Source of the DNA: Dehalococcoidales bacterium
GTDB lineage: Bacteria; Chloroflexota; Dehalococcoidia; Dehalococcoidales; CSSed11-197
Direction: 5' to 3'
NCBI GenBank assembly: GCA_028717385.1
Contig: JAQUNW010000002.1
Span: forward strand, 3,465 to 67,464
DNA length: 64,000 bases
Shown: piece by piece, positions 3,415 to 26,645 of the stretch
Layout of the letters: each line of letters begins with the position of its first letter
Numbering within the stretch: position 1 is the first letter of the stretch
Notes under the pieces: generated by a model
Told to the model about the DNA's origin: nothing
The model's database searches: none
The model's input: the letters and a program-made list of their open reading frames with translations, nothing else
Position numbers and translations under genes: made by a program

Positions 3415-4137
3415 TCAAATGGGCAAAGCAGAAATTAAAGATATTCCGGCCAGCAAGCTTAATATGTTGGCAACGATTACATAAGCAGCAGTTCGCAAAC
3501 GGCGATGTTCGTTTACCAAAATCAGAAAACCGGCCATTTCAATTATAAATATCAGCGCTTCTGCAAAAAACAGAAGGAGGACTAGATAGCCCACATGAAA
3601 AGGAGGGGTTCCATTCAAACATATCCAGAGCGTAAGCTGTGTGGCCAGGTTAAGACCGAGGAAAACCAGCCAGCTTCTCTTGCGACGGTAACCGAACAGG
3701 AAAAACACAAGCCCTTCGACCAAAAGCGTCAAAACAACCCGGGAGAATATTAAAAATGCTGACCGGTAAAAGGATTTACCCGGCGTAAGCGATTGGCTTT
3801 TCAGATCAAGTGTATAGATGTTTTGATATGACTCAACCGGCTTGTCTAGCTCTATTATGAAGGTTTTTCCTCCAGTGGCAACTTCAAAACTATAATCCGT
3901 AAACTGCATCTGATAGGAATAAAAAGAGTAGTAGGTTTCATAAGAGTGGGTGGTTTTGGAAGCCTTAGGACCCTCCGGTAGCAGGCTGATTTCCAAATCT
4001 TCGGGAGCATGGGCAACAATTATAAATATCGAGGGCGGCTCGGCAGAATTAGCATGGCATTCAGTTGTTTGAATAAAAGGAAAAAATAGCAGAAGCCCGG
4101 CTACTGCCAAGAGAAAATATTTCGCCCATTTCTTCAT
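3415..4137 (-). CDS. hypothetical membrane protein (signal peptide, C-terminal multi-TM region)
   Basis: Long ORF with N-terminal signal-like helix and 4-5 C-terminal TM helices. No family recognised. Confidence 0.5.
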   Translation of the reverse strand: MKKWAKYFLLAVAGLLLFFPFIQTTECHANSAEPPSIFIIVAHAPEDLEISLLPEGPKASKTTHSYETYYSFYSYQMQFTDYSFEVATGGKTFIIELDKPVESYQNIYTLDLKSQSLTPGKSFYRSAFLIFSRVVLTLLVEGLVFFLFGYRRKRSWLVFLGLNLATQLTLWICLNGTPPFHVGYLVLLLFFAEALIFIIEMAGFLILVNEHRRLRTAAYVIVANILSLLAGISLISALPI

Positions 4138-4230
4138 GCTGTTAATACTTTACCACTCAATGTCAAAAAGCTTAAGTTATTTTCCCCAACTTTGTTAAAA
4201 ACCATTGTACAGACTACGAAATGAAAGCAA

Positions 4231-4278
4231 AAACACGTGTCATGTCCGAATGAAGCGAAGGGTCTCGCAAGAATTGTG
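4231..4278. repeat. 48-nt direct repeat, copy A (contains near-palindrome TCTCGCAAGA)
   Basis: aaacacgtgtcatgtccgaatgaagcgaagggtctcgcaagaattgtg aligns with 4341-4388 at about 75 percent identity. Confidence 0.6.
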
Positions 4279-4340
4279 CCCGTATATAAGAAAAAACATC
4301 TTGACGTTGGCGCTCTATACGTATAAGATCCTTGGGCAGT

Positions 4341-4388
4341 AAACGCATGTCATTCCGGGCAAAGTGAAGAGTCTTGCAAGAATTGTTG
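4341..4388. repeat. 48-nt direct repeat, copy B (contains perfect palindrome TCTTGCAAGA)
   Basis: aaacgcatgtcattccgggcaaagtgaagagtcttgcaagaattgttg lies 110 nt downstream of copy A. It overlaps the annotated start of ORF 4374. Confidence 0.6.
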
Positions 4389-4949
4389 TCTACCATAATA
4401 AAAATTAATCAAAACATAATAGATACACTCAAGGCTACTATTGTAGTCATAAGCCTGGTGCTTCTGGCAGTCACCGGTGTGCAGCTATACATAGTCCTGA
4501 CTACCGATACTGAGAGTGATATTTCCTATTTTCTAAAGTTGGCAGAAGACCTTCATGGTGATATCGATGCAGAATTTCTTAAGGAGAACGTTACTGAACT
4601 TGCTGGAATAATTTCTTCTCCAAATCTGGGAGAGTCCAAACCGATAGCTCTGGCAATATCCCACGGCATTTTCATGACCAACGCATACAGGGAAAGGTTT
4701 TACGACCTCATGTCAGTAACCGATGCAACCCTGGTGCTTAAAAATGCTTTGATACAGGAAGGCGGACTATTCTTGAACAGCTATCACAACCTGAGGGAAG
4801 CGCTTAACGACAGCCTGAATGAAGACTACGACTCCCGCGATTCAAATATTCACAAAGTGTTGTCAAAACTTGATGAAGCCCTGGCGTTGAGATATCCAAA
4901 TACTGCCGCTATTGAACGTTGGCTGGGTGAACCAGGAAAACCTGACTAG
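4374..4949 (+). CDS. hypothetical N-terminally membrane-anchored protein
   Basis: Track ORF with one TM helix (VVISLVLLAVTGVQLYIVL). Start codon is uncertain (TTG at 4374, 4383 or 4386). Confidence 0.45.
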   Translation: MQELLSTIIKINQNIIDTLKATIVVISLVLLAVTGVQLYIVLTTDTESDISYFLKLAEDLHGDIDAEFLKENVTELAGIISSPNLGESKPIALAISHGIFMTNAYRERFYDLMSVTDATLVLKNALIQEGGLFLNSYHNLREALNDSLNEDYDSRDSNIHKVLSKLDEALALRYPNTAAIERWLGEPGKPD

Positions 4950-4962
4950 CGAATACCTGTTA

Positions 4963-5160
4963 CTAGCCGCACCCGCTGCAGCCTCCGCAACTGCCAGATG
5001 AGCAGCTGTTGCTCTTTCCGGAGTTAAAGGCAGCATATACCCGTTCCAGTCCAGCTTTCCCACATGACGTGCATTTTACTTCATTGTGGTTTGTACCCAT
5101 TGGCAACAACAGCTCAAAAACACAGTCACATCTAAGGCATTTATAAGAATATAAAGGCAT
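4963..5160 (-). CDS. FmdB-family zinc-ribbon putative regulatory protein
   Basis: 'MPLYSYKCLRCDCVFE...KCTSCGK' CxxC..CxxC ribbon plus Cys/Gly/Ser-rich tail, typical of the FmdB/CxxC_CxxC_SSSS family. Confidence 0.8.
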   Translation of the reverse strand: MPLYSYKCLRCDCVFELLLPMGTNHNEVKCTSCGKAGLERVYAAFNSGKSNSCSSGSCGGCSGCG

Positions 5161-5213
5161 TTTTCCTCTCTATATAGATCCAAATAATTATTGCTGACAG
5201 CAACATCAGCGCT

Positions 5214-5531
5214 CTAGCCTTTTTTAGCAAGTATTTCTTCCGCCCAGGCCATTGCGGCAATCATCCGCGGGAAACCGGCAGTAGTAAGCGTTTGAATAAT
5301 TGCGTGTCTAATTTCTTCAGGGGAGATACCTTCAGAAAGAGCCTGTAACACATGAGACTGGACATCCCCTTCGCTTTCAATCCCAATAGCAATACCAAGC
5401 TTTACCAACCTGCGGCACTTAGCATCCAGCGGACCATCCTGATGGCAGCTCTGGGCTAGTTTGGAAAAATCCCGGGCAATTTCAGGATACTTCTTCTCAA
5501 AATCGGCATAATATTTGGGAGAATATTTCAT
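5214..5531 (-). CDS. carboxymuconolactone decarboxylase (AhpD-like) family protein
   Basis: 105-aa all-helical protein. 'LDAKCRRLVKLGIAIG...ISPEEIRHAI' matches the CMD-domain pattern. Confidence 0.75.
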   Translation of the reverse strand: MKYSPKYYADFEKKYPEIARDFSKLAQSCHQDGPLDAKCRRLVKLGIAIGIESEGDVQSHVLQALSEGISPEEIRHAIIQTLTTAGFPRMIAAMAWAEEILAKKG

Positions 5532-5674
5532 CGCGCTTCCTCCTTAGCATTAGATAAACTCATTATCATGCAAGAAGATTTTGTTGTCAATTGAAATAAT
5601 TTATCGATTAGCGGGATATATTAATCGTGCCTGATTAGAGTATAATATTATTATTAACATGGAGGAAGTTCTTT

Positions 5675-5797
5675 ATGGAATTGCACCTGGTACTCGGCTG
5701 GGGTTCGCCAATCGGTATCGGCATCTTTCTTCTCTGCCTTGCTGGCATGGTTTACATTTTATCCAAAGTAGGTAAAGACAAGGGCGACAGAGATTAA
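5675..5797 (+). CDS. possible 40-aa small membrane protein
   Basis: Not in the track. RBS GGAGGA lies 8 nt upstream of ATG 5675. Translation is MELHLVLGWGSPIGIGIFLLCLAGMVYILSKVGKDKGDRD. Confidence 0.3.
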   Translation: MELHLVLGWGSPIGIGIFLLCLAGMVYILSKVGKDKGDRD

Positions 5798-12354: not shown

Positions 12355-12472
12355 GGATTAATATTTAATTATGCTAATTCGCTATTGATATCAACATACG
12401 CTTTACACAACTTATATGCCTGTTCTAGGGAGAGTGCAACATTAGCTTCCATTTACGTTCCTTTTAGGACAT

Positions 12473-12504
12473 AAAAAAGTGGCAGCGGCTGGATTTGGAC
12501 CAGC
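12473..12504. repeat. distal copy of the tRNA-Met 3' end (putative att remnant); also forms a hairpin downstream of the HesB-like gene
   Basis: aaaaaagtggcagcgGctggatttgGaccagC versus 14696-14727 aaaaaagtggcagcgActggatttgAaccagT. 29 of 32 positions are identical, and two of the three differences are compensatory in the T-stem. On the minus strand it reads AGCGGCTGG-TCCAAAT-CCAGCCGCT, then GCCAC, then TTTTTT. Confidence 0.75.
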
Positions 12505-12522
12505 CGCTTTAACCAGCGGCTA

Positions 12523-12822
12523 TCAACAACTGCAACCTTCACAGCCCGATTGCCCGGGTTTGCTGATTACAAATCCCTCTCCGTCCATTGATTGGATATA
12601 ATCAATCGTATTTCCGCCTGTAAAGGGTTTAACATTATCAGAAACCAAAAGGTTAATACTGTTTACCTGAATTGCGGTTTCATTCTCTCTTAACTCATCC
12701 AGAGCTAATCCTAAACGAGGCCCACCTCAACCAGCTTCAATCGTTATGCGTAAATATTTCCCAACATTTTCATCTAGTATTTCTTTTATTTTATCTCGGG
12801 CAGCATCAGTAATTTGTAACAA
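12523..12822 (-). CDS. HesB/IscA-like selenoprotein (in-frame UGA = Sec at codon 32)
   Basis: Absent from the track. Manual translation is MLQITDAARDKIKEILDENVGKYLRITIEAG-U-GGPRLGLALDELRENETAIQVNSINLLVSDNVKPFTGGNTIDYIQSMDGEGFVISKPGQSGCEGCSC. TGA lies at 12729-12727, where IscA-type proteins have the GGC(S)G cysteine. TTG start at 12822 has RBS AAGGA 7 nt upstream. Confidence 0.75.
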
Positions 12823-12866
12823 TATGTTTTCCTTTTCACCAATCAATGGTAATTATTATCGGTACT

Positions 12867-12916
12867 ACAGGTTTTATTCTATCATAAAAGAAGGTTGTTA
12901 AAATAATAAAACCTGT
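12867..12916. repeat. 12-bp perfect inverted repeat (ACAGGTTTTATT ... AATAAAACCTGT) with 26-nt spacer
   Basis: Read directly. Lies 45-95 nt upstream of the HesB-like start and about 150 nt downstream of ORF 13066-13407. Confidence 0.6.
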
Positions 12917-13065
12917 AAAGCAAGGCCAAACATGTTTAAGACATATGATTTCCTGGGAAACGTGATCATTAAAACTCTGTCAATGGTTTTAATGTAACTG
13001 CGAAAAAAGCTGTAATAAAGCGATGACGCCAGCGGGTAACAGGGCGACCTGTTTCTGTATTAAAT

Positions 13066-13407
13066 TTAGCGTACCTGGTTTATTTTTTCCGCCAGTTCAT
13101 CAGGGTTGCCGGGAGAAAGCACCATTCGCTGATAATTCCAGCCATTTAGAAAAATCACCAGGTGCTTCTTTCTAATTGTAGCGCACCAGAATTCTGCCCC
13201 TAAAGCAGTGTGGTATGTGCCGGCTTTAATAATAAACGGGATATTCGTTCCCGGGGAGCGCACTGCCAGCATGTTCCAGTCTGGCTTTTCAGCCAAGGCA
13301 CCGGTGATATTGACCAGCGGAACAGAAAACGATCCGTTGAAAGATATATATTTCTCTAAAAGATTAAGCTTAATGTCCAAATGATCTTGGTTAAGATAAA
13401 TCTTCAT
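13066..13407 (-). CDS. hypothetical protein (possibly bacterial PH-like domain)
   Basis: 113-aa track ORF. 'AVRSPGTNIPFIIKAGTY' weakly recalls bPH-type domains. Assignment is tentative. Confidence 0.4.
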   Translation of the reverse strand: MKIYLNQDHLDIKLNLLEKYISFNGSFSVPLVNITGALAEKPDWNMLAVRSPGTNIPFIIKAGTYHTALGAEFWCATIRKKHLVIFLNGWNYQRMVLSPGNPDELAEKINQVR

Positions 13408-13504
13408 TCTTTTTAGAAGCTGCTACCCGAAAGGCTTTACTCCCCGGGCTGCTCACTTTCGGCCTTGTAAGTTTATCACAACAAGGCTCCTCGGGAAAAA
13501 AGCA

Positions 13505-13753
13505 TTATTTGCCATTATTGTTCCTCACTGACAACAAGGTGGAAGCATAATGCGCTTTCCTTAATACTATTTTCCTCTCCACCTGGAGATCATTGTCCTG
13601 TTTCTCTGACTGCCAACAGTTGAAGTTGTTACAATACCAGAGGAAGCCTTTCAGTTTATCCGAGTAACACTCTATTGTTCCGTAGGATTTGCCTTCTACC
13701 TTGCAGGATAGTAAAAACTCATCGATTGCCTGTTTTACGCTTATATTAGACAT
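13505..13753 (-). pseudogene. tyrosine recombinase/phage integrase, N-terminal SAM-like domain remnant
   Basis: 'KQAIDEFLLSCKVEGKSYGTIECYSDKLKGFLWYC' is a typical integrase N-terminal core-binding region. The ORF stops after 82 aa and there is no catalytic domain (R..HxxR..Y) downstream. Confidence 0.6.
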
Positions 13754-13930
13754 TGGACCTGATCTCCTTCTCGTTTAGTTGCGTGCGAGTATAGTCTTCT
13801 TTCGGAGAAGGTCAATAGAGATGTGAGGCTTGTTATTTATGAAGAACCCCGTCTTTGCGTTTTAGGCTTGTCAGCATGTGTTATATTGTAATAACAATAT
13901 AAAGACTTAACGAAACAGGAGAAGCATATC

Positions 13931-14692
13931 GTGTCAAAATTCCTAAACACTTGGAGTGCTTTTGCTCAAATCGAAAGTATAATTAGCAGCTCCACGAAAA
14001 AGCTTTGTTTGATTACTCCATATATCAAAATGCCTGAATCATTATTAGAGCGCTTGATATATAAATCTAACAGTGGCGTTGATATAACAATCGTATGCAG
14101 GGAGCAAGACTTAAAATCTCAAGAAAGAGACGCCTTAAGCAAGATACGCAATCTAGAACTTCGCTTTCTTGAAAAGCTTCATGCTAAGTGTTTTTACAAT
14201 GAAGAAAACATGGTTATTACTTCTTTGAATTTATATGAGACTTCTCAAGGAAACCGCGAAATGGGGATACTCCTCACCTCATCGGATGATTCTTCAACGT
14301 TCGATGAGGCGGTAAGAGAAGCTGAATTCATCGTCCAATCTGCAAAACAATCGAATAGTATAGAGCATAAGTTTACAAAGCCTAAATATATAAAACAGTC
14401 TTTATCAGAAAAACCATCTGCCACAAATCAAACAGTTCAAAAAAGCAAATCGGTGCTTGCCGAAATAGCGGATTTCATGTTCGGAGAGCCAACTAATTCC
14501 AGAGGTTATTGCATACGTTGCCACGGTTTAATTGATAAGAATCCTGATAAACCTCTTTGTGGCAGTTGCTTTGAGATCTGGCGCAGGGTTAGTAATCGTA
14601 ATTTCACCGAAAATTACTGCCACATTTGCGGTAAACCAGCAAAAACCTCATTTGCAAAACCTCAGTGCAAGACTTGTTATAAGAGGCAATAA
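13931..14692 (+). CDS. PLD-like (single HKD-type) domain protein with two C-terminal CxxC zinc ribbons
   Basis: 'KLHAKCFYNEENMVITSLNL' resembles the HxK(x4)D(x6)GSxN motif, with E and T substitutions. C-terminus is 'CIRCHG..CGSCFE' and 'CHICGK..CKTCYK'. GTG start. Confidence 0.65.
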   Translation: MSKFLNTWSAFAQIESIISSSTKKLCLITPYIKMPESLLERLIYKSNSGVDITIVCREQDLKSQERDALSKIRNLELRFLEKLHAKCFYNEENMVITSLNLYETSQGNREMGILLTSSDDSSTFDEAVREAEFIVQSAKQSNSIEHKFTKPKYIKQSLSEKPSATNQTVQKSKSVLAEIADFMFGEPTNSRGYCIRCHGLIDKNPDKPLCGSCFEIWRRVSNRNFTENYCHICGKPAKTSFAKPQCKTCYKRQ

Positions 14693-14702
14693 ATGAAAAA
14701 AG

Positions 14703-14774
14703 TGGCAGCGACTGGATTTGAACCAGTGACCAAGGGCTTATGAGTCCCCTGCTCTACCACTGAGCTACGCTGCC
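14703..14774 (-). tRNA. tRNA-Met (anticodon CAT; could alternatively be a lysidine-modified tRNA-Ile2)
   Basis: The minus strand folds by eye as GGCAGCG TA GCTC AGTGGTA GAGC A GGGGA CTCATAA GCCCT TGGTC ACTGG TTCAAAT CCAGT CGCTGCC A. G1-C72 is paired, so this is not an initiator. No encoded CCA. Confidence 0.88.
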
Positions 14775-21922: not shown

Positions 21923-22014
21923 TGGCGGAGGGAGAGGGATTCGAACCCTCGACACCGGTTTCCCGATGTAAGCGCTTAGCAGGCGCCCGCACTAGACCTC
22001 TATGCGATCCCTCC
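21923..22014 (-). tRNA. tRNA-Ser (anticodon GCT), CCA encoded
   Basis: Minus strand reads GGAGGGA...CCTGCTAAGCG, with anticodon loop CT-GCT-AA. It has a long variable arm, T-arm GAGGGTTCGAATCCCTC and 3' end TCCCTCC-G-CCA. Confidence 0.9.
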
Positions 22015-22446
22015 CCGCCAAGGGCCGTTTGGCCCAGTTACCGGTTTAATATATCACATTCAGTATAAAACCTTAAAGTCTAACCCTTCTTCTGTGCCTA
22101 AAAATTTATACATAGTGTTTAAATGTGGTTTTGTGTTACCTTTTATACAAGTATGGATTATTGGTAAACATAAAGAAAGTTTATTTTTCCCCCATTTTTT
22201 TCCCAGATACAGATGTGCCATTAAGCGCAAATTCGGGCGTTTAAGGGAGCTTTTCTGAGATTTTGGCGAGGGGTGCGTTTGCTCAATCCGCCACAAAAGC
22301 CTTGCCCTCGATATCGGGGTATTGTTAACATTACCCCCGGTTTTATAATATCTTTCTTTATAAATACCCTGGATTATTCATATCAGTCTGTATTTCCCGA
22401 TCGTACGGGTGAGAATCACTTATTTAAAAGGAGTTCTGGTTTAATA

Positions 22447-23772
22447 ATGCCTTTAGCACCACAAATATGGCAGGCGGCTCTCGGAGAATTAGAGCTTCAA
22501 ATGACCCGCCCTAATTTTAATACCTGGCTTAAAGGCACTACCGGGCTTAGTTTTAATGATGGTGTTTTTACAATTGGCGTCCCCAGTTCTTTTGTTGCTG
22601 AATACCTCGAAACAAGCCAATATTCACTTATAGAACGCACTATAATGCGACTCGCCTCCCGTAATGTTAAAATTTGCTTTCAAGTCACCGGTCCCGGTGC
22701 AGATAAAAACGGGCTCAACAACGACAGAAAAACCCCTGATACCACCGTCCACCATCGTTTTAATCCTAGATACACATTCGAAAGCTTTGTTACCGGCAAT
22801 GGCAATCAACTGGCTCACGCGGCGGCAGTAAGCACCGCAAAAGGACCTGGGCAACTCTATAATCCCCTGTTTTTATACGGAGGTGTGGGACTCGGTAAAA
22901 CCCACCTTCTTCATGCTATCGGTCACGTTGCAACAAAAAATAACTTGCAGGCGCTTTACGTCAGCGGCGAGCAGTTCACTAACGACTTTGTCGGCTCTAT
23001 TCGCTCAGGGAACGGAGAAGAATTCCGCAACCGTTATCGTAGTGTAGATATCCTCCTGGTAGACGATATCCAATTTATCAGTGGTAAAAACCAAACAGAA
23101 GAGTGTTTTTTCCATACCTTCAACGAATTGCATAACGGCTCTCGCCAGATAGTTCTTTCAAGTGATCGAACTCCAAAAGAAATGCCTTTGATTGAAGATC
23201 GCCTTCGTTCCAGATTTGAATGGGGGTTAACCGTTGATATACAACCACCAGAATTTGAAACTCGAATGGCAATACTTAAAGCTAAAGTAGAGCGTGATGG
23301 TATCAAGGTTATGCCCGAAGTACTTGAGTTTATTGCCAAAGAAATTAATACAAACGTACGCGAATTGGAAGGTTCACTTAACCGCATTACTGCTTATTCC
23401 AGGCTTCTCCAAGCAGAAATTACTCCCGAGCTTGCACGTAGAGCTATCACTGATATCGGTTCAGGTTCTAAAAACGGTCATTCACCGGATGCTATCATCC
23501 GTGAAGTTGCGGCCTCTTTTTCACTAGAACCTGATGATCTAACTGGTCCGCGTAGAGATAAAACCACCGCACTTGCCCGCCAATTGGCTATGTACTTATT
23601 GAAAAGTTATCATAACTACCCGCTTGTGCAGATTGGAGAGCTGTTGGGAGGGCGCAACGCCTCTACAGTTAGCCATGCGTGCGATAAGATATCACGAGAT
23701 ATCAATAACAACCCTCCTCTTAAACGACAAGTTGAAACCATTCGTAACAAGTTTTCTTCTTCATTAAGCTAA
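22447..23772 (+). CDS. dnaA: chromosomal replication initiator protein DnaA
   Basis: 'NPLFLYGGVGLGKTHLLHAIG' Walker A, 'LLVDDIQF' Walker B, and the C-terminal DNA-binding domain. Start chosen at ATG 22447 (MPLAPQIWQAALGELELQM), not track start 22273. Confidence 0.95.
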   Translation: MPLAPQIWQAALGELELQMTRPNFNTWLKGTTGLSFNDGVFTIGVPSSFVAEYLETSQYSLIERTIMRLASRNVKICFQVTGPGADKNGLNNDRKTPDTTVHHRFNPRYTFESFVTGNGNQLAHAAAVSTAKGPGQLYNPLFLYGGVGLGKTHLLHAIGHVATKNNLQALYVSGEQFTNDFVGSIRSGNGEEFRNRYRSVDILLVDDIQFISGKNQTEECFFHTFNELHNGSRQIVLSSDRTPKEMPLIEDRLRSRFEWGLTVDIQPPEFETRMAILKAKVERDGIKVMPEVLEFIAKEINTNVRELEGSLNRITAYSRLLQAEITPELARRAITDIGSGSKNGHSPDAIIREVAASFSLEPDDLTGPRRDKTTALARQLAMYLLKSYHNYPLVQIGELLGGRNASTVSHACDKISRDINNNPPLKRQVETIRNKFSSSLS

Positions 23773-23780
23773 ATCCTCCA

Positions 23781-24038
23781 TTATCAGCCTTTTAATACAT
23801 TTCGTATAACTGTACCCGCTTATTTCATGATACCCTTGGAAAATTCAATGTTATTTTGATAACTCTAGTTAAAATTTTCGATAACTCCAATTGGTTTTCG
23901 ATAAGTCGAATTATTACTACGTTTAAATTATCGTCATTTTAAAATTCTACCAGCTACAAAATAATATGCTATTATTACTAAGGCTAAAAAACATATAAGT
24001 CTTCCAAGAATGCATGTATTGATTGGAATAATAATAGC
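23781..24038. promoter_or_regulatory. candidate oriC: phased TTTTCGATAA(C/G)TC repeats plus AT-rich region
   Basis: Direct copies at 23854-23865, 23875-23887 and 23895-23907, spaced 20-21 bp apart. A looser copy lies at about 23800 (tttcgtataactg) and an inverted TTATCG at 23928. TTATCAG is at 23781. These are followed by about 130 nt of very AT-rich sequence. Confidence 0.5.
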
Positions 24039-25304
24039 GTGTTCGATAGAGCGAAAATAATAATAAAATCTGGAAAAGGTGGAGCTGGCCTGGCAAGTTT
24101 CCGCCATGAGAAATTTGTTCCCTTTGGCGGTCCTGATGGGGGTGATGGGGGTGATGGAGGTGATATTATCCTGTTAGTTGATCGAAATGAGGATACCCTT
24201 AAAAAATATTATTTTAAAAAAGAATATAGTGCCGAGAATGGGATGCCTGGTCAGCACCGTAAAAAAACAGGCAAATCAGGAAAGAAGCTGATTTTAAAAA
24301 TCCCACCTGGGACAATAATAACCGATATTACTGATCCAGAAAATCCGCATATTATAGCTGATATGGATACCGAGGGGGATGTTTTAGTTGCCGCTAAAGG
24401 GGGGAAAGGCGGCATTGGCAATGTGCACTTTACTTCTTCTACTAACCAGGCACCAAAGTTGGCGTCGGTTGGAGAAGGATCAGAAGAAAAAGTTTTACAA
24501 CTGGAGTTAAAACTAATAGCGGATGTGGGTATAATTGGGCTTCCCAACGCCGGGAAATCTTCCTTGCTTGCTGTAAGTTCAGGCGCCAAGCCCAGGATAG
24601 CCAGCTATCCGTTTACTACACTTGAACCTGAACTCGGTACGGTAGTTTATGCAAAATCCTCGTTTGTGATGGCAGATATTCCGGGATTGATCGAAGGGGC
24701 AGCAGACGGTAAGGGTTTAGGGCATGAATTTCTTCGCCATATTATTCGTACTAAATTGTTAATCCATCTGATAGACGGAAGCTCTCTAGAGCCAATTAAT
24801 GATTTTAAAATAGTTAACCGGGAACTCAATCGATATGATCCTAATCTTTTACACAAACAGCAAATCGTTGTAGTTAATAAGATAGACAAACCAGAAACCC
24901 AGTCCAGAATAGGGGAGATAATAAGGGAATTTGCATCCGAAGGAATTAATCCGTTGTTTATTTCTGCTCTTGCTGGAGAAGGCGTAGAAGGGCTCATTGA
25001 TAAAGTGGATAGACAACTTACCAAAATTGCGGCAATCCAACCGGTAGAAATCGGCGAGCAAGGGAAAATCTTCAGGCCAAAACCATTAAAACAAGGCCCT
25101 TTGATTAAACGTGAGGATGATAGCCTGGTAGTGGTTGATCCTGACCTTGAGCGTTTAGTAGCTGGTAGTGATATTGGTGATACTGAAGTGCGCAGACAAT
25201 TATGGCGAATGATAGAGAAAAGAGTAGGAGTTAAAAATATAGAAAAAGCCGGCGTTAAACCCGGTGATGTGATTCGTGTTGGAGACTTTGAATGGCGGTG
25301 GTAA
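24039..25304 (+). CDS. obg: GTPase Obg/CgtA
   Basis: 'FDRAKIIIKSGKGGAGLASFRHEKFVPFGGPDGGDGGDGG' Obg fold and 'GLPNAGKSSLL' G1 motif. Confidence 0.95.
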   Translation: MFDRAKIIIKSGKGGAGLASFRHEKFVPFGGPDGGDGGDGGDIILLVDRNEDTLKKYYFKKEYSAENGMPGQHRKKTGKSGKKLILKIPPGTIITDITDPENPHIIADMDTEGDVLVAAKGGKGGIGNVHFTSSTNQAPKLASVGEGSEEKVLQLELKLIADVGIIGLPNAGKSSLLAVSSGAKPRIASYPFTTLEPELGTVVYAKSSFVMADIPGLIEGAADGKGLGHEFLRHIIRTKLLIHLIDGSSLEPINDFKIVNRELNRYDPNLLHKQQIVVVNKIDKPETQSRIGEIIREFASEGINPLFISALAGEGVEGLIDKVDRQLTKIAAIQPVEIGEQGKIFRPKPLKQGPLIKREDDSLVVVDPDLERLVAGSDIGDTEVRRQLWRMIEKRVGVKNIEKAGVKPGDVIRVGDFEWRW

Positions 25305-25311
25305 TAATCCG

Positions 25312-25911
25312 GTGAAACTTGGGATACTTGGAGGGACGTTCGATCCACCCCATAATGGGCATCTGCAGATTGGACGTGAAGCATTACGGGCTCTGGGGCT
25401 TGATCGTGTTGTTTTTATGGTTGCCGGGTCTCCTCAATTAAAGCGTAACCCTGTCATTACTCCGGCCGAGCAGAGACTGGCAATGACAGAACTTGCTGTA
25501 AATGAAGAAAAATACTTTGAAGTTTCCCCCCTTGAAGTGCGCAGAAAAGGAGCTACATATACAGCTCAAACACTGGCGGAGATAGATCAACTTGGGGGCG
25601 GAAAGGATAAGCTGTTTTTTATAATCGGGATGGATAATCTCTCCAATTTGAGATCTTGGTATAAACCCGAAGAAATCATTAGAAAGAGTACTCTTGTAGT
25701 AGTTCCCCGTCCGGATTCAGCTGAAGTCGATATCGCACAGCTGGAGAAGGATATCCCAGGAATTACTCGACGATTAAAAATATTGGAAGGCCCGTTGATA
25801 AATATCAGCGCCTCGGATATCCGCAGGAAAGCCAGCAAGGGTGAAGATATTACCTGCCTGGTGCCGCATAAAGTGGCAGAGTACATAAAACAAAATCAAC
25901 TCTATGTTTAA
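25312..25911 (+). CDS. nadD: nicotinate-nucleotide adenylyltransferase
   Basis: 'GILGGTFDPPHNGH' (T/H)xGH motif. Start is ambiguous: GTG 25312, or TTG 25276/25285. Confidence 0.85.
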   Translation: MKLGILGGTFDPPHNGHLQIGREALRALGLDRVVFMVAGSPQLKRNPVITPAEQRLAMTELAVNEEKYFEVSPLEVRRKGATYTAQTLAEIDQLGGGKDKLFFIIGMDNLSNLRSWYKPEEIIRKSTLVVVPRPDSAEVDIAQLEKDIPGITRRLKILEGPLINISASDIRRKASKGEDITCLVPHKVAEYIKQNQLYV

Positions 25912-26419: not shown

Positions 26420-26551
26420 TAATATCGGCCAGCGGTTGTTATTCAGGCGATAAGATTTCTCGTATATAAACAGGCGCTTTACTGATATTCCAAAATTATA
26501 AAGAGCCTGATGGGACTTAAAACCTTTAATTCAGTATGATATAATGGCCTT

Positions 26552-26645
26552 GGAGGCGGATAGGCCCTGGTGGGTCTCGCGGACTTCAAATCCGTTGGCG
26601 GGGACCTGGTCGCCGCGGGGGGTTCGATTCCCTCCCCCTCCGCCA
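26552..26645 (+). tRNA. selC: tRNA-Sec (anticodon TCA)
   Basis: GGAGGCGG acceptor. Anticodon loop is C-T-TCA-AA, with the anticodon at 26586-26588. It has a long variable arm (gttggcggggacctggtcgccgc), T-loop GGTTCGATTCC and 3' ..CTCCG-CCA. It lies directly upstream of selD. Confidence 0.88.

Follow-up and report, generated by a model that had tools for sequence, protein, structure and literature searches.

A probable accretion array of small integrative elements at the 3' end of a tRNA-Met gene in a Dehalococcoidales bacterium

In a 64,000-nucleotide (nt) stretch of contig JAQUNW010000002.1 from a Dehalococcoidales bacterium, referred to here as the window, a tRNA-Met(CAU) gene and a diverged copy of its 3' end enclose a small island at positions 12505-14695. 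Positions 12473-14774 probably represent the tRNA-proximal end of an accretion array, built by a family of small integrative elements at the 3' part of the tRNA-Met gene in Dehalococcoidia. Each such element would consist of an attachment (att) site, one variable gene on the opposite strand, a divergent 314-amino acid (aa) Xer-like tyrosine integrase, optional cargo, and a second att site. The layer nearest to the tRNA is a PLD-like gene together with the promoter and first 44 codons of the integrase, and the distal layer a HesB-like selenoprotein gene with a 32-nt att scar; in a sister strain (locus L083; the loci used for comparison carry numbers between L001 and L171) two further modules, containing a methyltransferase and a DUF2703 gene, lie beyond. 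Insertion would take place at the tRNA, making the newest layers the most proximal, and the single-gene intervals of related arrays would derive mainly from minimal elements that lost their integrase. The features that carry this interpretation are as follows.

14702-14774, minus strand: tRNA-Met(CAU) gene (CAT anticodon), the putative attachment target (attB/attL); ARAGORN, and 70.7 bits with the Rfam tRNA model.
14696-14727, minus strand: proximal 32-nt copy, the putative att core at the tRNA, with the T-arm (T-stem and T-loop), the 3' acceptor strand and the T-run after the gene.
12473-12504, minus strand: distal 32-nt copy, a putative att scar with the GCTGG/CCAGC allele, recognised by the repeat match and its fold; the allele recurs elsewhere.
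13505-13753, minus strand: integrase remnant, an open reading frame (ORF) of 82 aa with a weak, sub-threshold Pfam match to Phage_int_SAM_4 and a tblastn match to the integrase P0122.
13788-13815, minus strand: predicted integrase promoter TTGACC-16-TATACT, found by promoter scan inside the conserved upstream motif CTATTGACCTTC.

The two 32-nt segments are identical at 29 of 32 positions, with the coordinates and the three differences given in a preliminary description made from the sequence. Read on the tRNA strand, the proximal copy is ACTGG-TTCAAAT-CCAGT-CGCTGCCAC-TTTTTT and the distal copy GCTGG-TCCAAAT-CCAGC-CGCTGCCAC-TTTTTT; two of the changes are compensatory within the T-stem and the third, TTCAAAT to TCCAAAT, falls in the T-loop, again as first described. 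These are the only two sites in the window related by three or fewer mismatches, they form the longest and top-ranking direct repeat within 9-19 kb, and 100 dinucleotide-preserving shuffles produced no such match. From the tRNA-Met 3' end to the start of the island is a distance of 6 nt. A promoter scan places a sigma70-like promoter for the tRNA gene, TTGACA-17-TAAAAT, at 14816-14788, and the same tRNA-Met adjoins CorA in the relatives L001-L003 and L007-L010. This conserved neighbour, CorA, assigns the window to a Dehalococcoidaceae/Dehalococcoidales lineage of metagenome-assembled genomes. The name tRNA-Met is based on the CAT anticodon only, which fits either an elongator tRNA-Met or a lysidine-modified tRNA-Ile2; the gene is not an initiator, because it has a G1-C72 pair, and no CCA end is encoded.

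The preliminary description had proposed an integrase N-terminal remnant within the island, and this assignment is borne out. Homology of the 82-aa ORF to P0122 is confined in tblastn comparisons to 13619-13750, corresponding to about residues 2-48, with 79% identity over residues 2-44, and the remainder of the ORF is sequence unrelated to integrase. A tyrosine integrase near the tRNA-proximal end of the window is thus represented by its promoter and residues 2-44 only, a truncation that would leave the island unable to move by itself; tblastn found no second integrase match elsewhere in the 64 kb. A database search with the 82-aa ORF gave 163 homologues, 80-90% identical over the first ~40 residues, all of them 47-144 aa long and comprising only N-terminal SAM-like integrase domains. 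P0122, a full-length member of 314 aa with the PF00589 catalytic domain and the R...HxxR...Y residues, was recovered by exhaustive profile-free search. It is Xer-like and scores under every curated NCBIfam cut-off, integron integrases included (TIGR02249, 61.8 bits against a cut-off of 265; PRK15417, 32.5 against 435). The CTATTGACCTTC motif also lies upstream of the full-length integrase in L093. The search for the same integrase N-terminus elsewhere, as originally suggested, produced both a full-length protein and, as described below, att-flanked elements of ~7 kb.

This integrase family is closely associated with tRNA-Met. Among the 80 metagenome loci returned with the integrase, about 22 have a complete tRNA-Met; all tRNA-Met genes and 3'-end copies in these loci share the integrase strand and, where the sequence suffices, sit upstream of the integrase. 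The att copy nearest to the integrase lies a median of 756 nt upstream (40 loci), and a single unrelated ORF, encoded on the opposite strand, occupies the gap in ~30 of these 40. The window repeats this arrangement with tRNA, opposite-strand PLD-like gene and integrase remnant, and its gap is 949 nt; the PLD-like gene fills the slot of the variable gene between att and integrase. Elements of ~7 kb flanked by ~45-nt att copies that begin in the anticodon loop are present in L121, L122 and L125, and their cargo is mostly unannotatable. About 100 copies of the tRNA-Met 3' end were found altogether, all on the tRNA strand and downstream of tRNA-Met and/or upstream of the integrase. A widespread dispersed repeat was one of the findings named beforehand as speaking against an island; because all of the ~100 copies have the same strand and are linked to tRNA-Met and/or the integrase, the repeat is not of the dispersed type.

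Related genomes carry such fragments in series downstream of the tRNA: at least two strong and two weak copies in L001, two in L009, four to five in L010, and one each in L002 and L003. The most extensive array, L082 (a Chloroflexota contig; GCA_042579985.1, JBHOWL010000010.1, 1-9191), has at least ten copies on one strand within 7.3 kb. The genes between the L082 copies are small and unrelated to one another and include MscS, MscL, LUD, methyltransferase, DUF3795, acetyltransferase and DUF1847, and in the same contig an integrase N-terminal ORF ends within one tRNA-Met copy, at 10 nt of microhomology. Over all loci the spacing of neighbouring sites has a median of 688 bp (56 intervals), and exactly one ORF of at least 60 aa is present in 34 of the 56, in either orientation (19 minus and 15 plus relative to the tRNA). 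The fragments fall into a long class, whose homology begins in the anticodon loop, 17-18 nt ahead of the T-stem, and a short class beginning at or just before the T-loop, an apparent left boundary that is biased by the fixed 21-nt pattern used for the fragment census. A T-run follows 51 of 80 fragments. Six to eight of the short fragments adjoin the integrase promoter motif with nothing in between. The fusions lie at 760 and 7255 in L082, 432 in L009, 3121 in L150, 218 in L134 and 789 in L111, and at the join CCCACAAAGCTATTGACCTTC, which holds the -35 box, runs straight onto a T-arm/acceptor fragment, always just after CCTTC. This pattern suggests a recurrent, possibly site-specific deletion that starts at a fixed point and takes away both the integrase and the distal cargo. 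Beyond these fusions the short fragments have no common left-arm motif, and when 95 cassette ORFs were compared all against all, different arrays had no cassette in common except in duplicate contigs.

The origin of the distal copy can be considered in the light of tRNA-Met variation. Among 31 tRNA-Met genes, from loci L001-L171 and the window, there are 23 distinct sequences, in which the T-stem holds most of the variation (11 alleles) and the rest is nearly invariant. The variable sites are T-stem positions 48-51 and 61-64 and D-loop position 16, and the T-stem is the only helix lying wholly inside the segment duplicated in long att copies. Genuine tRNA-Met genes in L011, L123 and L165, and many fragments, have the T-stem GCTGG/CCAGC, so that the allele of the distal copy is a different one that already existed. 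Its T-stem was probably inherited from another att or tRNA allele, and the compensatory pair would not have evolved in place. The allele may have come in as the attP of the HesB element, as the preliminary description suggested, or may represent a displaced earlier tRNA end, a choice that hinges on the crossover point. Junction comparisons among the window, L105, L001 and L083 fit a junction 3' of the T-arm, among other positions.

Two features are needed to follow the comparison of this interval between strains and relatives.

12505-12943, minus strand: HesB module, comprising the HesB/IscA-like gene and its upstream region, defined by translation, by the NF038090 match and by matches in L003 and L105.
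12449-12462, strand not assigned: 14-nt sequence at an indel junction, reading AGGAACGTAAATGG on the minus strand; single-copy in the window, with two copies flanking the insert of L083.

Judged by sequence comparison, the interval is composite and the HesB module is a separately acquired layer. In the closest relative, L003 (CorA 94% identical, and 90% nucleotide identity over the tRNA-CorA segment), the order is tRNA, a different islet of 640 bp, a tRNA-end copy, and then HesB-side sequence; L003 1-191, which the tRNA-end copy precedes, is 82% identical to 12753-12943 of the window, covering the HesB 5' end and upstream sequence. In L105 a HesB homologue with 73% protein identity, its in-frame TGA kept, has a GCTGG/CCAGC att copy after it, and next comes an unrelated unit of gene plus integrase. 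The earlier suggestion that a selenoprotein gene resides on acquired DNA gains from this recurrence of HesB and att copy in a second context with the TGA conserved. The sister strain L083, 99.7-99.97% identical to the window, has an extra 2079 bp (3690-5768) just outside the distal repeat, containing a methyltransferase gene, a decayed att copy and a DUF2703 gene. No other structural polymorphism was found within the species; the 14-nt AGGAACGTAAATGG direct repeat at the ends of the indel includes a ribosome-binding site and ATG. The methyltransferase module with its att-side flank is also present in L001 (89% protein identity), and at the site beside the tRNA the content varies among L001, L002, L003 and L083. 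Modules far from the tRNA thus recur in more distant relatives and those close to it are lineage-specific, as serial insertion at the tRNA predicts. The view of the region as a decayed, tRNA-Met-bounded island accordingly holds, with the integrase family, the differing content of relatives and the composition in its favour; its treatment as a single island does not, given the composite structure apparent from L003, L105 and L083.

An integron-like platform provides another way of generating such arrays, although we consider it unlikely. A resident integrase acting in trans would insert integrase-less, single-gene cassettes, each with its own T-arm/acceptor mimic, at tRNA-Met, and HesB with its att copy would be one such cassette. 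Most intervals are indeed short and hold a single gene, a full-length integrase often closes arrays of 5-10 copies at the end away from the tRNA side (L097, L150, L115 and L111), HesB occurs with the same att allele in two contexts, and the integrase is Xer-like, as are integron integrases. However, no cassette occupies two different array positions in the sample, gene orientation is mixed (19 versus 15), the left flanks of the short copies lack a common motif, the frequent integrase remnants and promoter-fragment fusions favour decay of integrase-bearing elements, and the integrase scores far under the integron-integrase cut-offs. A broader form of this idea, which we hold to be similarly doubtful, is that the tRNA-Met 3' end anchors integron-like cassette capture, with the Xer-like integrase inserting, shuffling or fixing single genes such as HesB, and perhaps also deleting itself site-specifically just after its own -35 box; such self-deletion would account for the recurrent promoter-fragment fusions and the dominance of single-gene units. 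The resemblance to integrons (IntegronFinder paper, PMC4889954) extends to the mostly single-gene units, the short structured recombination sites and the Xer-related tyrosine recombinase. In contrast to integrons, the sites here are copies of a tRNA 3' end and not attC, the integrase is not beside an attI, the genes have both orientations and their own promoters, and the integrase reaches 62 bits against a cut-off of 265. Identification of the system as an integron was rejected on integrase score, site type and mixed gene orientation.

That all four ORFs arrived together in a single event, with the distal 32-nt copy as the single attR, is very unlikely. Such an event would explain why only one distal repeat is detectable in the window, with no internal scar, but the tRNA-end copy of L003 parts the HesB upstream region from a different islet at the equivalent of window position 12943, L105 has HesB and its att copy without PLD or orf113, and the GC content varies between sub-parts of the island, from 0.37 to 0.435. 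It is highly improbable that the repeat is no integration scar at all and instead reflects a local duplication, a convergent terminator hairpin or a dispersed repeat similar to repetitive extragenic palindromes or miniature inverted-repeat transposable elements (REP/MITE-like): the distal copy is formally a hairpin and U-run after a gene, and T-runs follow 51 of 80 fragments, but a 29/32 match has zero chance expectation, long copies elsewhere reach into the anticodon loop, orientation is strictly the same-strand one with linkage to tRNA-Met and one integrase family, and an integrase remnant lies within the interval.

Accretion of elements at the tRNA should also be weighed against its own weak points. 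The proposed check of base and k-mer composition found the island to be the most deviant stretch of the window: its GC content is 0.395, against 0.454 +/- 0.021, the lowest of all 2.19-kb segments, and in tetranucleotide usage it stands furthest from the rest (z = 2.9). Because the dnaA-obg region at 22-25 kb comes close to it on both measures, composition by itself is weak evidence, of a supportive kind only. No intact integrase was found in the window. The preliminary description proposed a search for an empty site with tRNA-Met directly beside the cupin/cysK side; none was found among 14 contigs with the cupin gene and 19 with the 82-aa ORF, nor was an excised form seen in the contigs examined, and all contigs with an identical 82-aa ORF or cupin match the window arrangement except L083. 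Local alignment of four tRNA-end variants to 12505-14695 gave no internal att scar above shuffled controls; because no scar was found between them, the boundary of the integrase remnant/orf113 part and the HesB module appears to have been erased. The chimeric T-stems and junctions fit more than one crossover position, and allele differences or later deletions would also explain them. Pfam searches of the ~7-kb elements of L122 and L125 recognised no replication, transfer or phage genes, and no relatives were found in IMG/VR. These points, together with the census bias noted above, count against the proposed array. A phage origin was rejected on the same absence of IMG/VR relatives and of phage or replication domains in the 7-kb elements.

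The four ORFs of the island were found as first described: the 82-aa integrase remnant, and the three following.

13931-14692, plus strand: PLD-like gene with a double zinc ribbon (PLDc_2, E = 1.3e-9; DZR_2; phrog_9329, E = 8e-33; weak DrmC match).
13066-13407, minus strand: 113-aa orphan ORF between the integrase remnant and the HesB module, with a sub-threshold bPH_5 match only.
12523-12822, minus strand: HesB/IscA-like selenoprotein ORF, with an in-frame TGA/selenocysteine (Sec) codon at 12727-12729.

The 113-aa orphan has no match in NCBIfam, PADLOC or PHROG. The HesB-like protein contains the motif EAG-U-GGPR, with UGA at the position of a conserved Cys, and the L105 homologue has the same reading as the window. 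When Cys is substituted for U, its best match is NF038090 (IscA_HesB_Se), at 62.4 bits against a cut-off of 85, and TIGR01911 gives 29.9 bits against 66. A tRNA-Sec gene is present in the window at 26551-26644 on the plus strand. A hairpin predicted after the HesB UGA lacks significance (z -1.3). The window does not keep the ATG at which the L105 HesB homologue starts, and its likely start is TTG at 12822-12820, following an AAGGA ribosome-binding site.

The distal copy together with 12505-12508 is predicted to form a 9-bp hairpin followed by GCCAC-U6, starting 15 nt past the HesB stop codon, with a minimum free energy of -22.7 kcal/mol for 65 nt (z -3.7). Termination of HesB transcription by this hairpin and U-run is plausible from the folding prediction. 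The extended hairpin stem is not conserved in L105, and the 5-nt spacer before the U-run is atypical of an intrinsic terminator.

Genome plasticity by serial islands at the ends of RNA genes is already known, and the closest examples are those of Dehalococcoides and the tycheposons. In cultivated Dehalococcoides, tandem ssrA islands are bounded by repeats of the ssrA 3' end; some lack integration genes and have been interpreted as cis-mobilisable elements or as products of accretion, and tRNA-Ala 3'-fragment repeats lie beside truncated recombinase homologues in the high-plasticity regions that flank the origin (McMurdie et al. 2009, PMC2764846; 2011, PMC3146451). The array described here comes from the same bacterial class and likewise has small-RNA 3'-end repeats near the origin; it lies ~7.5 kb from dnaA. 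The target differs, being tRNA-Met(CAU) here and ssrA or tRNA-Ala there, as does the recombinase, a 314-aa Xer-like tyrosine recombinase (PF00589) rather than the 540-aa serine recombinase DsiB with its six-gene module, and the units here have a median of ~0.7 kb and mostly a single gene, whereas those of Dehalococcoides are multi-gene islands. With a tRNA-Met target and a recombinase of tyrosine type, not DsiB, assignment to the Dehalococcoides ssrA genomic islands was rejected. The concept of accretion of cis-mobilisable elements at tRNA and other att sites is cited in PMC3146451, and the likeness is that att-flanked units without an integrase stay in tandem beside a functional target gene.

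Tycheposons, the elements of Prochlorococcus tRNA islands, use tRNA-specific tyrosine recombinases, and their serial integration pushes older elements outward; the islands contain partial tRNAs and fragmented integrases, and their cargo is adaptive or of unknown function (Hackl et al., bioRxiv 10.1101/2020.12.28.424599). A tyrosine recombinase linked to one tRNA, partial tRNAs and fragmented integrases occur in the present arrays too, and serial integration would likewise have displaced their older elements. Unlike in tycheposons, no primase/helicase/polymerase module was recognised in the ~7-kb elements, and the host phylum differs. Within the collection of papers searched, none combined Dehalococcoidia, tRNA-Met and integrase. 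What is new here is the tRNA-Met(CAU) target, the small Xer-like integrase family, the layout of att, one gene and integrase, and the very small size of the units.

Gene capture by loss of the integrase has reportedly been described for archaeal chromosomes by She and colleagues in 2001. In both cases integrase loss would fix the captured genes, and the difference is that here it is by truncation or deletion and not by SSV-type partition. An SSV-type split integrase, with attP inside the gene, was rejected after comparing a full-length integrase gene (L093) and the longest truncated copy (L081, 143 aa), neither of which has a tRNA-like segment.

The array shows accessory-gene gain in an uncultured, streamlined Dehalococcoidales lineage, a selenoprotein gene included, and that gene is readable only in hosts already decoding UGA as selenocysteine. 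The density of the single-gene arrays and the restriction of tRNA variation to the T-stem suggest that recombination at tRNA-Met is unusually frequent. The pairing of integrase and tRNA-Met 3' end is specific and highly conserved and could serve for locating the flexible gene pool of these organisms in metagenomes. Assemblies also break at the att copies.

Two further observations concern the surroundings of the array. Positions 22273-25911, with dnaA (22273-23772), obg and a nadD-like gene, make up the replication-origin region. No extra fragments of tRNA-Ser(GCT) (21923-22014, minus strand) or tRNA-Sec were seen in the window; these two tRNA genes are nearly alike over the T-arm and 3' acceptor strand, with 2-3 mismatches in 26 nt.

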